From the NCBI RefSeq assembly GCF_003334335.1, contig NZ_QOWQ01000018.1: a stretch of 64,000 nucleotides of DNA; one strand, 5' to 3'. The notes under the pieces are model-generated. The model was not told the origin of the DNA, searched no databases, and saw nothing but the letters and a program-made list of their open reading frames with translations. Source of the DNA: Escherichia coli. Its GTDB lineage: Bacteria > Pseudomonadota > Gammaproteobacteria > Enterobacterales > Enterobacteriaceae. Below, piece by piece: positions 1-5,657 of the stretch (the first letter of the stretch is position 1; each line of letters begins with the position of its first letter). The position numbers and the translations under genes were made by a program.

Positions 1-1716
1 GAACTGGCCTACGCTCTCTGGCCTGGTGATGTGGATGCCGGAAACATTGACGGCAGCATCCATCGCTGGGCAAAAAATGAAGTTATCGACAACGACCGCG
101 AAGACTGGAAGCGTATCTCGGCATCAATGCGCAAACAGCCTGAAGCACTTGGCTATGACCGTCAGACTATTTTTGGCCTTGTCCGTGAACGTCCGATCGA
201 CATTCACAAAGATCCCGTGGCGCTGAACAAATACATCACTGAATACCTGACTACAAAGGGCGTGTTTGAAGATGAAGGAACAAATCAGAGCACAACTAAT
301 ACTCTCCCGTCGCCAGTACCAGAAGCTGATGCAGTGGAAACGGCAATGCCGGACAACGAAAAAACCGAATGCAAAGTGGAAGTCGAACCATCTGTAGAGC
401 GTGAGGGGCCGTTCTACTTCCTCTTCACCGACAAGGATGGCGAAAAATACGGTCGCGCAAACAAACTTTCTGGTCTGGAAAAAGCACTAGCCTTGGGAGC
501 TACGGAAATCACAAAAGAGGAATACTTCGCACGTAAAAACGGCACGTACTCAGGTTCACAACAAAATACTGGTGCATCTGACACGACCGCACAACCAGAG
601 CCGGTAAAAGTTACCGCTGACGAAGTAAACAAAATTATGCAGGCAGCCAATATCAGCCAGCCTGACGCCGATAAGTTGCTTGCTGCCTCTCGCGGAGAAT
701 TTGTTGCAGGGATTAGCGACCCGAATGATCCGAAATGGGTAAAGGGGATTGAAACCCGCGATTCTGTAGACCAGAACCAGCAAGAATCGGAACAGAACGA
801 CCAGAAAGCGGAACAAAACAGCCCAAATGCGTTACAAAACGAGCCAGAAACGAAACAACCTGAACCAGTAGTGCAACAGGAACCGGAAAAGATCTGCACC
901 GCCTGCGGTCAGACCGGCGGCGGCAACTGCCCTGATTGTGGCGCGGTGATGGGCGACGCAACATACCAGGAAACATTCGATGAAGAGTATCAGGTTGAAG
1001 TTCAGGAAGATGATCCGGAGGAAATGGAAGGCGCTGAACATCCACACAAGGAGAATGCTGGCAGCGCTCAGGATCACGCCAGCGATAGTGAAACTGGCGA
1101 GACGGCAGATCCCTTAATTACGGTGAACGGTCATCACGTTATCACATCCACCAGCAGGTTGTGGCACCATCTGATGATTGACCTTGAAACAATGGGCAAA
1201 AATCCTGATGCGCCAATAAACTCTCTGGCCGGTAAGTTTTTTGATCCGGCAACCGGAGAGATGGGGCCAGAATTCAGCAAAACTATCGATCTGGAAACCG
1301 CAGGCGGAGTCATCGATCGGGACACCATTAAGTGGTGGCTGAAACAGTCACGGGAAGCACAATCAGCCATTCTGACCGATGAAATCCCGTTGGATGACGC
1401 ACTGTTGCAATTACGGGAATTTATCGACGAAAACTCCGGTGAATTTTTTGTTCAGGTCTGGGGAAATGGAGCCAACTTCGACAACGTGATTTTACGCCGT
1501 TCATATGAACGGCAGGAGATCCCCTGCCCGTGGCGTTACACCAATGATCGTGATGTAAGAACGATTGTTGCCCTGGGGCTGGTGATGGATTTCGATGCTC
1601 GAAGTGTCATCACATTTGAGGGTGAACGCCATAATGCCCTGCACGATGCGCGTTACCAGGCAAAATACGTTTCAGCTATCTGGCAAAAACTGTTCCCGAA
1701 TCAGGCTGATTTTTAA
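1..1716 (+). CDS. Prophage protein, 5'-partial (reading frame open from base 1), with a C-terminal DnaQ-like DEDDh 3'-5' exonuclease domain, a central CxxC-x7-CxxC zinc ribbon and an acidic/Gln-rich linker
   Basis: Frame 1 is open from position 1 to the stop at 1714-1716. Exo motifs are visible in the translation: MIDLETMG (Exo I), WGNGANFDNVIL (Exo II), HNALHDARYQAKY (Exo III). It sits directly upstream of xis-int as in lambdoid early-left regions. Confidence 0.6.
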   Translation, partial: ELAYALWPGDVDAGNIDGSIHRWAKNEVIDNDREDWKRISASMRKQPEALGYDRQTIFGLVRERPIDIHKDPVALNKYITEYLTTKGVFEDEGTNQSTTNTLPSPVPEADAVETAMPDNEKTECKVEVEPSVEREGPFYFLFTDKDGEKYGRANKLSGLEKALALGATEITKEEYFARKNGTYSGSQQNTGASDTTAQPEPVKVTADEVNKIMQAANISQPDADKLLAASRGEFVAGISDPNDPKWVKGIETRDSVDQNQQESEQNDQKAEQNSPNALQNEPETKQPEPVVQQEPEKICTACGQTGGGNCPDCGAVMGDATYQETFDEEYQVEVQEDDPEEMEGAEHPHKENAGSAQDHASDSETGETADPLITVNGHHVITSTSRLWHHLMIDLETMGKNPDAPINSLAGKFFDPATGEMGPEFSKTIDLETAGGVIDRDTIKWWLKQSREAQSAILTDEIPLDDALLQLREFIDENSGEFFVQVWGNGANFDNVILRRSYERQEIPCPWRYTNDRDVRTIVALGLVMDFDARSVITFEGERHNALHDARYQAKYVSAIWQKLFPNQADF

Positions 1717-1777
1717 TGTTCAACCGTCGCCGGTTGTAGTTGGTATTCTGCAACTGGCGCGTTCCGGAGTGATGGTC

Positions 1778-2047
1778 ATGAGCGAACAGTACCTGATTAC
1801 GCTCGACGAGTGGAAACCTAAGCGGTTCAGTCTCCCAATAACAAACACTACCCTGGTGAAATACGGAAAACTTGGATACATCGTACCAAGACCACAAAAA
1901 ATTCGTGGTCGCTGGCTAATAGATCGCCGCGCAGTCTTTGTTGGACCGGGTGAAGCTGGAATTGCGCCGGAAATTCATACTGGCGATGATGACGCACTGA
2001 AGGAGATTTTAACCCATGTCACCGAGGCCACGAAAAAACAGTACTGA
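1778..2047 (+). CDS. xis: Phage excisionase (Xis-like, small basic winged-helix protein)
   Basis: 89-aa ORF (MSEQYLITLDEWKPKRFSLP...RGRWLIDRRAVFV) immediately upstream of and overlapping int by 32 nt. GGAG lies 10 nt before the ATG at 1778. Start chosen within ORF 1595..2047. Confidence 0.6.
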   Translation: MSEQYLITLDEWKPKRFSLPITNTTLVKYGKLGYIVPRPQKIRGRWLIDRRAVFVGPGEAGIAPEIHTGDDDALKEILTHVTEATKKQY

Positions 2048-3134
2048 CGTAGCAGCTCTTTACGAAAAGTTTGATCGCAGAACTGGCAAGGTTTACTACC
2101 AGTATAAAAATCCTGTGACTGGAAAATTTCACGGACTTGGGACAGACAAAGTCAAGGCAGAAAAAATCGCTGCAACAGCCAATCAGCGAATAGCTGCAGC
2201 AGAAGCAGAATATTTCATGCGCAAAATTGATGAAAGTCCATCAGCAACAAAACGTCGGGGTATCAGATTAAAGGCATGGGTTGATCGATATCTGAAAATA
2301 CAGGATTCGCGACTGAAAAATGGAGACATTGCAGCTACAACCCACAAAGAAAAAGTGCGAATGGCTGCATACCTGGTTTCCCGCCTGGGAAACCACCCAT
2401 TGAAAGAACTGGAGGTAAGAGACTTTGCATTAATACTGGACGAGTGGATGGATAAAGACATGGTCAGCACAGCAAGAGTAAATCGCGGATTATGGGTTGA
2501 TATTTATAAAGAAGCACAGCATGCGGGAGAAGTTCCTCCTGGATGGAATCCTCCGAAGGCTACCCGTAAACCGATCCCTAAAGTGACCAGATCCAGACTC
2601 ACCCTGGAAGACTGGCAAAAAATTTATAATGCAACGCCAGAAAAACACTTTATCCGTAACGCAATGCTTCTTGCGATTGTTACTGGTCAGCGCCGTGATG
2701 ACATTTGCCACATGCGTTTTTCAGATGTATGGAATGGACATCTACATATAACCCAAGGAAAAACCGGAATGCGTCTGGCCTTACCTCTTACGCTACGATG
2801 CGATGAAATTGGGGTATCGTTAAAAGAAGTTATTGATGGATGCAGGGACAGAATGTTGAGTCCATACCTAATCCATAGTAGGCACCAGAAACAACCAAAA
2901 CCGATGAGTAAAGACAACCTGAGCGATTACTTCGCCAAAGCGCGAGATCTGGCTGGAATAATTCCACCAGCAGGAAAAACACCGCCAACATTTCATGAAC
3001 AACGCTCCCTGTCAGAACGGTTGTACCGCGCACAGGGTGTCGATACAAAAACATTACTGGGACATAAAGTCCAGGCTACCACCGATCGCTATAACGATAC
3101 TCGAGGTCAGGAATGGGTTAAGTTGGTTATTTGA
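2016..3134 (+). CDS. int: Lambda-family tyrosine integrase
   Basis: 372 aa; the C-terminus (PPTFHEQRSLSERLY...LLGHKVQATTDRYNDTRGQEWVKL) matches the lambda Int catalytic region (R..H-x-x-R..Y pattern). AGGAG RBS lies 10 nt upstream. Confidence 0.9.
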   Translation: MSPRPRKNSTDVAALYEKFDRRTGKVYYQYKNPVTGKFHGLGTDKVKAEKIAATANQRIAAAEAEYFMRKIDESPSATKRRGIRLKAWVDRYLKIQDSRLKNGDIAATTHKEKVRMAAYLVSRLGNHPLKELEVRDFALILDEWMDKDMVSTARVNRGLWVDIYKEAQHAGEVPPGWNPPKATRKPIPKVTRSRLTLEDWQKIYNATPEKHFIRNAMLLAIVTGQRRDDICHMRFSDVWNGHLHITQGKTGMRLALPLTLRCDEIGVSLKEVIDGCRDRMLSPYLIHSRHQKQPKPMSKDNLSDYFAKARDLAGIIPPAGKTPPTFHEQRSLSERLYRAQGVDTKTLLGHKVQATTDRYNDTRGQEWVKLVI

Positions 3135-3197
3135 CAAACACCATATGGAATATCCGTCACCATCTCAGGAAAAAAGTGTTGTAAAATGCGTGGCCTT

Positions 3198-3235
3198 GTT
3201 TTGGGGAAAAGTTTTGGAGAGATTTTGGAGAAAGG
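3198..3235. repeat. Three tandem direct repeats (core TTTTGGRGA) between int stop and the potB/potC junction; candidate Int arm-type binding sites
   Basis: gTTTTGGGGAaaa / gTTTTGGAGAg / aTTTTGGAGAaagg at 3199-3207, 3212-3220 and 3223-3231, read directly from the sequence. Confidence 0.5.
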
Positions 3236-3259
3236 AAAAAATTGAATAAATTCAAAATC

Positions 3260-3304
3260 CTGAAAGTGCTCCACCTTATGAATAAGAAGGTGGAACTCGA
3301 ATGA
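3260..3304 (+). other. Putative prophage attachment-site core overlapping the last potB codons (...NKKVELE-stop) and the potC start
   Basis: Frame-2 reading ends ...LMNKKVELE with TGA at 3302-3304 overlapping the potC ATG at 3301. Upstream of about 3280 the sequence is phage (int) rather than potB. Exact core limits are not determinable without a reference. Confidence 0.35.
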
Positions 3305-4095
3305 TCGGTCGACTGCTTCGCGGCGGTTTTATGACCGCTATCTACGCGTACCTGTATATCCCAATCATTATTTTGATTGTGAACTCCTTTAACAGCTCGC
3401 GCTTTGGCATCAACTGGCAGGGTTTTACCACCAAATGGTATAGCCTGCTGATGAACAACGACAGCCTGTTACAGGCAGCGCAGCATTCACTAACAATGGC
3501 GGTGTTTTCGGCGACGTTTGCTACGCTTATCGGTTCACTGACGGCAGTTGCGCTGTACCGTTATCGCTTTCGTGGTAAGCCGTTCGTTAGCGGAATGCTG
3601 TTTGTGGTGATGATGTCACCAGATATCGTGATGGCGATTTCGCTGCTGGTGCTGTTTATGCTGCTGGGTATTCAGCTTGGCTTCTGGTCGCTGCTGTTCT
3701 CGCATATCACCTTCTGCCTGCCATTTGTGGTGGTGACGGTGTATTCGCGCCTGAAAGGTTTTGACGTGCGAATGCTGGAAGCGGCGAAAGATCTCGGTGC
3801 CAGCGAATTTACCATTCTGCGAAAAATCATTCTGCCACTGGCAATGCCAGCGGTGGCGGCGGGCTGGGTGTTAAGCTTTACCCTGTCGATGGACGATGTG
3901 GTAGTTTCTTCGTTCGTCACCGGACCAAGTTATGAAATTCTGCCGTTAAAAATTTATTCGATGGTCAAAGTCGGCGTATCGCCGGAAGTTAACGCGCTGG
4001 CAACCATATTACTGGTGCTGTCGCTGGTGATGGTTATTGCCAGCCAGCTTATTGCTCGTGATAAAACGAAAGGTAACACAGGGGACGTTAAATGA
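3301..4095 (+). CDS. potC: Spermidine/putrescine ABC transporter permease PotC
   Basis: 264-aa ORF recognised as E. coli PotC; 4-nt overlap with potD. Confidence 0.95.
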   Translation: MIGRLLRGGFMTAIYAYLYIPIIILIVNSFNSSRFGINWQGFTTKWYSLLMNNDSLLQAAQHSLTMAVFSATFATLIGSLTAVALYRYRFRGKPFVSGMLFVVMMSPDIVMAISLLVLFMLLGIQLGFWSLLFSHITFCLPFVVVTVYSRLKGFDVRMLEAAKDLGASEFTILRKIILPLAMPAVAAGWVLSFTLSMDDVVVSSFVTGPSYEILPLKIYSMVKVGVSPEVNALATILLVLSLVMVIASQLIARDKTKGNTGDVK

Positions 4096-5195: not shown

Positions 5196-5657
5196 ATGAG
5201 TCAGGACAGTAAAGTTTTCTTTCGTATATTCCTCGGTATCGGTCTGGTACTGATCCTCATTTCTGTTGTTGTCTTTTATAACCAGTTCACCTATAGCAAA
5301 GACGCGATTCATACCGAAGGCGTCATTGTTGATACCGTCTGGCACTCCAGTCATTCTCATCGCACGGGTAAAGATGGTTCGTGGTATCCCGTCGTTGCCT
5401 TTCGACCGACGCCAGATTACACGCTAATTTTCAATTCGAGTATCGGCAGCGATTTTTATGAAGACAGCGAAGGCGATAAAGTTAATGTTTATTATTCTCC
5501 CGGGCATCCTGAAAAGGCTGAGATAAATAACCCGTGGGTTAATTTTTTTAAATGGGGGTTTATCGGCATTATGGGCGTTATTTTTATCGCCGTCGGTTTA
5601 TTAATAAGTATGCCCTCCTCTAAAAAATCACGCAGGAAACGGAAGTCCCGCCCATGA
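5196..5657 (+). CDS. ymfA: Inner membrane protein YmfA (DUF3592-like)
   Basis: ORF 5187..5657; start set at MSQDSK to give about 153 aa. Two hydrophobic segments. Position between potD and ycfZ as in K-12. Confidence 0.8.

Follow-up and report, generated by a model that had tools for sequence, protein, structure and literature searches.

Behind the integrase gene int of an Escherichia coli prophage, the word TTTTGGRGA stands three times in tandem, just before the DNA of the prophage passes into the DNA of the host. This locus raises the question of which protein, if any, reads the repeats: the integrase (Int) at arm-type sites, the excisionase (Xis), a host architectural protein, or the transcription machinery. 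The window, meaning the whole stretch of 64,000 nucleotides that was analysed, was compared with related prophages and phages, and the attachment site was rebuilt from both prophage ends.

The int end of the prophage

Window positions 1-3290 form the int end of a lambdoid prophage, which carries the following genes.

31-1716: exonuclease gene
1778-2047, + strand: xis, excisionase gene that runs into the start of int; annotated by RefSeq in the identical region (L002 48004-48273)
2016-3134, + strand: int, open reading frame of a 372-aa tyrosine integrase, with the arm-type DNA-binding domain in codons 1-64 (2016-2207)

The integrase was assigned by its domains. Pfam Arm-DNA-bind_1 (PF09003) covers residues 1-64 (E=1.3e-21), Phage_integrase covers residues 194-363, and the structure of full-length lambda Int (1z1b) was matched at E=1.8e-55. 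Int is 44% identical to the Int of phage 21 and 34.5% identical to that of lambda. An integrase with an Arm DNA-binding domain needs arm-type sites somewhere in attP.

In the source-like genome, the prophage has an IS4 near dicB and a frameshifted portal gene (L002 44041-45387 and 18402-19987). Because of these two lesions it may be defective, although its att arms are intact.

Attachment core and host site

The stop codon of int has its last base at 3134, and potC starts with the ATG at 3301. The initial annotation gave 165 bp between the int stop and the potB/potC junction; this length holds for the distance from the end of the stop codon to the potC ATG (166 nt), whereas the true phage/host junction is a 12-bp core at 3279-3290. 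The core was defined by comparing the empty K-12 site ttgcTGAATAAGAAGGtggaactcgaatga, the left junction …ttgcTGAATAAGAAGGcaaccgaaat… and the window …cttaTGAATAAGAAGGtggaactcg…. Homology to K-12 begins at window position 3279, and the core falls inside the last potB codons.

3270-3277, + strand: TCCACCTT, candidate phage-side core-type half-site, C'-like; together with 3287-3294 a perfect inverted repeat of 8 nt, the halves 9 nt apart
3279-3290, + strand: TGAATAAGAAGG, common core, found in both prophage junctions and in the empty K-12 potB site; contains the crossover
3287-3294, + strand: AAGGTGGA, candidate host-side core-type half-site, B-like; last potB codons, just 5' of the potC ATG

The inverted repeat TCCACCTT/AAGGTGGA, which flanks the core, likely represents the pair of core-type half-sites.

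In NZ_CM129862.1, which is 100% identical to window 2900-3400, the entire prophage lies between potB and potC. Among the 5426 complete E. coli genomes compared, 1392 have the int-potC junction, O157:H7 included, and potC is a reported insertion site of Stx phages (PMC8065619). Upon insertion, PotB no longer ends in VELE but in ATEIDD, which is contributed by the far arm (window 3279-3304; L004 5244-5275); type-B arms give a VSELDD-like end instead. The prophage also splits potC/potD from potAB by its whole length; no sigma-70-like promoter that could serve potCD in lysogens was predicted in window 2900-3500.

At five loci (L115, L119 and L122, with the core at 1843 / 6223; L124 and L127), the P arm was joined to non-potB DNA at core-like sequences, where CTCCATCTTC meets TGAATAAGAAGG and CACGCCTGA meets CGGATAAGAAGG. 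Such joints suggest either rearrangements or insertion at secondary attachment sites.

Sequence, spacing and chance expectation of the repeats

Window positions 3198-3235 read GTTTTGGGGAAAAGTTTTGGAGAGATTTTGGAGAAAGG. The three repeats proposed by the initial annotation were confirmed as exact 9-mers on the + strand, and its spacing of 11-13 bp was borne out, since their starts lie 13 and then 11 nt apart. They are listed with their distances from the core centre.

3199-3207, + strand: TTTTGGGGA, putative arm-type site, P'3-like, core-distal (-86 to -78)
3212-3220, + strand: TTTTGGAGA, putative arm-type site, P'2-like, middle (-73 to -65)
3223-3231, + strand: TTTTGGAGA, putative arm-type site, P'1-like, core-proximal (-62 to -54)

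On both strands of the 64-kb window, TTTTGGRGA matches only at these three positions, packed into 33 nt, and 1.1 matches are expected for the whole window. A permissive shuffle test, which accepted any 9-mer family with at most one mismatch, reached three copies in 376 of 2000 shuffles; it does not discriminate because the spacer is A/T-rich and of low complexity. A stricter test allowed no base more than four times in the word and demanded that three or more copies fit into 40 nt without overlap. Only 3 of 3000 dinucleotide shuffles of 3135-3300 produced such an arrangement.

The far arm and the reconstructed attP

The attP site was rebuilt by joining the window arm, the core and the far arm of L004, and distances were counted from the core centre. 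In the other prophage end, a fourth exact TTTTGGAGA was found on the same strand at +124 to +132. The initial annotation had suggested searching the opposite att arm for the same 9-mer, and this exact copy in the same orientation is what the search returned. By chance, an exact copy appeared in a 200-nt P arm in 137 of 20000 shuffles. The repeated word thus occurs in both arms of attP, three times on the int side and once at +124, and is unrelated to the core-type sequences TCCACCTT/AAGGTGGA.

Predicted sites of integration host factor (IHF) accompany the words. The far arm holds an exact match to the IHF consensus, AATCAAATAGTTA, at +103 to +115, with 8 nt between it and the fourth copy. A further site, with one mismatch, lies at +34 to +46; both are kept in the two P arm types. 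The candidate on the int side is weak.

3250-3262, + strand: ATTCAAAATCCTG, weak H'-like IHF candidate preceded by an A-tract; two mismatches to WATCAANNNNTTR; 23-35 nt from the core centre

In its place relative to the core, this candidate is similar to lambda H' (32-44 nt), but it points the opposite way. No P2-like inverted copy with at most one mismatch was found in the P arm, and the 2-mismatch matches were not kept between arm types; therefore the layout is three plus one, compared with three plus two in lambda.

Several palindromic elements were seen in the two arms. A palindrome TTGAATAAATTCAA (window 3242-3255), preceded by an A-tract, lies between the repeats and the core and overlaps the weak H'-like candidate. 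Its TTGA-N6-TCAA pattern is preserved in Citrobacter and in L095. The far arm contains a hairpin GGCATGCTTTTTAC-N6-GTAAAAAGCATGCC (L004 about 5312-5345; attP +57 to +90) and a second strong hairpin TTTTTTCAGCG…CGCTGAAAAAA just past the P-arm site (L004 5391-5427; +136 to +172). Every P arm type has some hairpin in the far arm, where Xis sites are expected, but the sequences differ. These hairpins could be a potB terminator, the Xis region or a sib-like element.

Conservation in related prophages

Among nine arm haplotypes, part of which was fetched by a pattern spanning repeats 2 and 3, variable columns numbered 1 of 27 within the repeats compared with 14 of 53 elsewhere in the arm (Fisher p=0.011). 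The only variable repeat column was the R position. Retrieval patterns that contained the motif were used for some relatives and inflate the apparent conservation of the motif, but not the distances or the link with Int. Repeats 2 and 3 were invariant across all haplotypes and Citrobacter. Repeat 1 was the least conserved and reads TTTTGGCGG in Citrobacter, TTTTGGTGA in L095 and TTTTGGAGA in L094.

Citrobacter was the one usable relative from a contig search made with Int, so it was found independently of the motif; IMG/VR loci retrieved by Int mostly end at the int stop, without the arm. The Citrobacter prophage occupies the same potB/potC site, its Int is 75% identical, and the sequences diverge completely just past the int stop. 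A 14-nt insertion lies just upstream of repeat 1, and the longest invariant run is AGTTTTGGAGAGATTTTGGAGAA. Outside repeat 1, a block GTTGTAAAATGCGTGGCC (window 3177-3194) is conserved in Citrobacter despite the 14-nt insertion and has diverged in L154.

In two classes of variants, cargo separates the repeats from the int stop (0.9 kb in L062, 2.1 kb in L154), yet the att arm is untouched and the distance from the triple to the core is unchanged. Therefore the repeats go with the core rather than with the 3' end of int. L014, whose Int is 98% identical and which shows no motif within 723 nt downstream, was considered as a counter-example and rejected: it contains 2.1 kb of cargo, and the triple is intact beside the core.

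The stretch from the int stop to the repeats is thus a cargo spot (L154 6321-8490 in NZ_CP015240.1; L062 2620-3570). In L154, the cargo consists of two reverse-strand genes, which encode a hypothetical protein and an AAA/ATP-binding protein, and is possibly a defence module.

In the far arm, an ungapped comparison gave 48% identity between P arm types A and B, and the distance from the core to the site is the same to the base. The two types share only four identical runs of at least 6 nt, namely the word TTTTGGAGAA, the H2-like site, the IHF core and the alternative PotB end. L094 (12750-13100) has a P-arm-like start, with the alternative PotB end, after the core and no fourth 9-mer at +124; this arm is probably a remnant of an older, decayed prophage arm. 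When the att regions of related phages were compared, as the initial annotation had proposed, the motif was kept in the diverged P arm, in Citrobacter and in the cargo variants.

Association of the word with the N-terminal domain of Int

The association between the word and the integrase was surveyed in IMG/VR. All 16 contigs with TTTTGGAGAGATTTTGGAGA have an Int homologue just upstream (38-99.7% identity), and one of the 16 has a different downstream target. A scan for TTTTGNNNA-N4-TTTTGNNNA-N2-TTTTGNNNA returned 115 matches; in 75 of them, an Int homologue lies no more than 3.5 kb upstream and mostly at a distance of 10-35 nt.

Other phages, too, have the 13/11 triple behind int. It reads TTTTGGGGA / TTTTGGAGG / TTTTGGGGA in the Klebsiella phage ST13-OXA48phi12.4, where it adjoins dcp, and three times TTTTGATAA in the Klebsiella phage Kp4865-4. 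In PPompW, an e14-like IntE prophage with attB in ompW, it reads three times TTTTGCAGA, and a further copy TTTTGCAGG lies about 121 nt past the duplicated att segment at the other end. The words were grouped by the signature of the Int N-domain.

YYQY: word TTTTGGAGA (GGAGA), 6 distinct N-domains
YWQY: word TTTTGGGGA (GGGGA), 10 distinct N-domains
YWRY: word TTTTGATAA, 12 distinct N-domains
YWRY: word TTTTGCAGA, 3 distinct N-domains

The word class tracks the N-domain signature without exception in 31 of 31 distinct N-domains and across different attB sites; as each class is a clade, the pattern reflects lineages that co-evolved and does not amount to 31 independent events. Words of the non-GG type (GATAA, GCAGA) pair with the YWRY signature. 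Since the word partitions with the N-domain signature, its link is with the arm-binding domain rather than with attB or host factors. The pairs of 9-mer word and Int N-domain form a small, ready-made data set on arm-site specificity.

The strand Y-[Y/W]-[Q/R]-Y aligns with GYYCYRDP of lambda. We also considered whether this Int family has a simple, readable code of arm recognition together with a reduced three-plus-one layout, which we regard as conceivable but doubtful. In such a code, two residues of the N-domain beta-strand Y-[Y/W]-[Q/R]-Y would specify bases 6-8 of TTTTGNNNA, the phasing would be fixed at 13/11, and a single P-arm site without P2 would serve both integration and excision. 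If this were true, arm specificity would be predictable from sequence and reprogrammable.

Assignment of the repeats and alternative explanations

The three repeats are very probably the P'3, P'2 and P'1 arm-type Int sites of this potB-inserted lambdoid prophage, with a word of the phage 21 type. The initial annotation had named them as candidate arm sites, and this proposal gains support from the layout, the conservation, the arm domain of Int and the annotation of phage 21, all of which are sequence comparisons.

Binding by Xis, in which a short filament of the protein would bend the arm during excision, appears improbable. In its favour, the Xis sites X1-X1.5-X2 of lambda are closely spaced direct repeats, as are the three words here, and xis lies just upstream of int. 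Xis would also co-vary with Int, and comparison by itself therefore does not fully distinguish between the two proteins. However, the lambda Xis sites lie only in the int-distal arm, between P2 and the core, whereas the triple lies in the int-proximal arm, where lambda has P'1-P'3, and the word recurs in the other arm at +124. Moreover, the word class partitions with a signature inside the arm-binding domain of Int, and the phage 21 record names the homologous words attP subsites P1P2P3. The other protein-binding reading, in which IHF or Fis occupies the repeats, was weighed together with a neutral slippage duplication without function, and we give these the least credence. The arm is A/T-rich, and loose repeat families are common in its shuffles (the 376 of 2000 above), but the strict arrangement was rare (3 of 3000), and the words and their exact spacing are kept in otherwise diverged arms. 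The 9-mers do not match the IHF consensus WATCAANNNNTTR, IHF-like sites lie elsewhere in the arms, and the word changes with the N-domain class of Int while the host factors stay the same. Thus, the alternatives of the initial annotation, Xis or a host factor, are not favoured.

A transcription signal (promoter, operator or terminator for int or potCD) or a gene for a small RNA or peptide is very improbable as well. The prophage cuts potC off from the potAB promoter, so a phage-borne signal at this place would make sense, and an open frame passes through the repeats into the potB stop codon. Nevertheless, no sigma-70-like promoter or terminator-like site was predicted on the repeats, the two terminator-like sites lie elsewhere, and no Rfam match was obtained over the repeats at E up to 1. 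The same triple is also present behind int in phages whose integration targets are unrelated genes. The coding reading was rejected, as the frame is broken by the 14-nt insertion upstream of repeat 1 in Citrobacter and by a 1-nt deletion in L101.

Proposed function of the putative arm-type sites

With the repeats taken as arm-type Int sites, the integrase would act as a heterobivalent protein. Its C-terminal domains would bind the inverted core-type sites TCCACCTT/AAGGTGGA, and its N-terminal domain (residues 1-64) would bind the TTTTGGRGA words. Presumably the tandem sites at 54-86 nt from the crossover would be filled by three adjacent Int protomers, and the lone copy of the other arm (+124) by a fourth. 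IHF would bend the DNA at +103 to +115 and at +34 to +46 and fold the arms back, such that the four protomers could bridge arm and core in the intasome. In the lysogen, the junction on the int side, which corresponds to attL of lambda, contains the triple, and excision with Xis would make use of it again.

The map of this attachment site now consists of the core, the core-type half-sites, three P' sites, one P site and the IHF sites, with the arm and IHF sites being predicted. It concerns a very common E. coli prophage and aids the definition of exact prophage boundaries, the design of integration vectors and the prediction of excision-competent prophages.

Comparison with lambda and phage 21

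In lambda, counted from the crossover centre, P'1-P'3 lie at 53-83, H' at 32-44, H2 at 36-48, H1 at 114-126, P1 at 134-143 in the orientation of the P' sites, and P2 (inverted) at 103-112. In the present attP, the three tandem int-proximal sites lie 54-86 nt from the core centre and the H2-like site at 34-46. The distal site of the same orientation stands just outside the IHF consensus with a gap of 8 nt, compared with 7 in lambda. Both integrases are of the heterobivalent type with a PF09003 N-domain. The distances match the P'/H2/H1/P1 order of lambda, and therefore the layout is lambda-like. The differences are the spacing (13/11 here, 10/11 in lambda), the position of the distal site and the H1-like site about one helical turn nearer the core than in lambda, and the word itself, since TTTTGGRGA is unrelated to MAGTCACTAT of lambda.

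The initial annotation had called the motif unlike the lambda arm consensus, and it does differ from MAGTCACTAT; but it was already annotated, as its reverse complement, in phage 21. In the GenBank record OL657228.1, a misc_feature at 27563-27599 beside int is given as attP with three subsites P1P2P3 and the consensus YYTTCCCCAAAA, which is the reverse complement of the repeat motif described here. In the part of the literature that was searched, no description of the motif or of the arm sites of 21/e14 was found.

On the int strand, the phage 21 subsites are GTTTTGGGGAAGG, GTTTTGGGGAAA and GTTTTGGGGAAGA, and the word, as the reverse complement TTTTGGGGAARR, is the same as TTTTGGRGA(A/G)(A/G) here. 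Site 1 (TTTTGGGGAAAA) matches the phage 21 consensus at 12 of 12 positions, and sites 2 and 3 (TTTTGGAGAGAT and TTTTGGAGAAAG) differ at position 7 and in the tail. Both phages have three tandem direct copies right after the int stop, spaced 13/12 in phage 21 and 13/11 here, and phage 21 has a fourth exact copy about 122 nt past the icd-homology boundary, compared with +124 here. The attB site lies in icd in phage 21 and in potB here. Phage 21 further differs in that its triple is separated from the probable crossover by a 165-bp icd duplicate and a terminator, a distance that is probably more than 200 nt; therefore a lambda-like distance is apparently not universal in the family.

The N-domain strand RTGKVYxQYKxP of phage 21 Int is conserved in the Int described here. 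All phage 21 copies read GGGGA, whereas three of the four copies here read GGAGA, which matches the W-to-Y change in the N-domain. The arrangement is thus mechanistically ordinary, and its motif is not new but is the one already annotated for phage 21.
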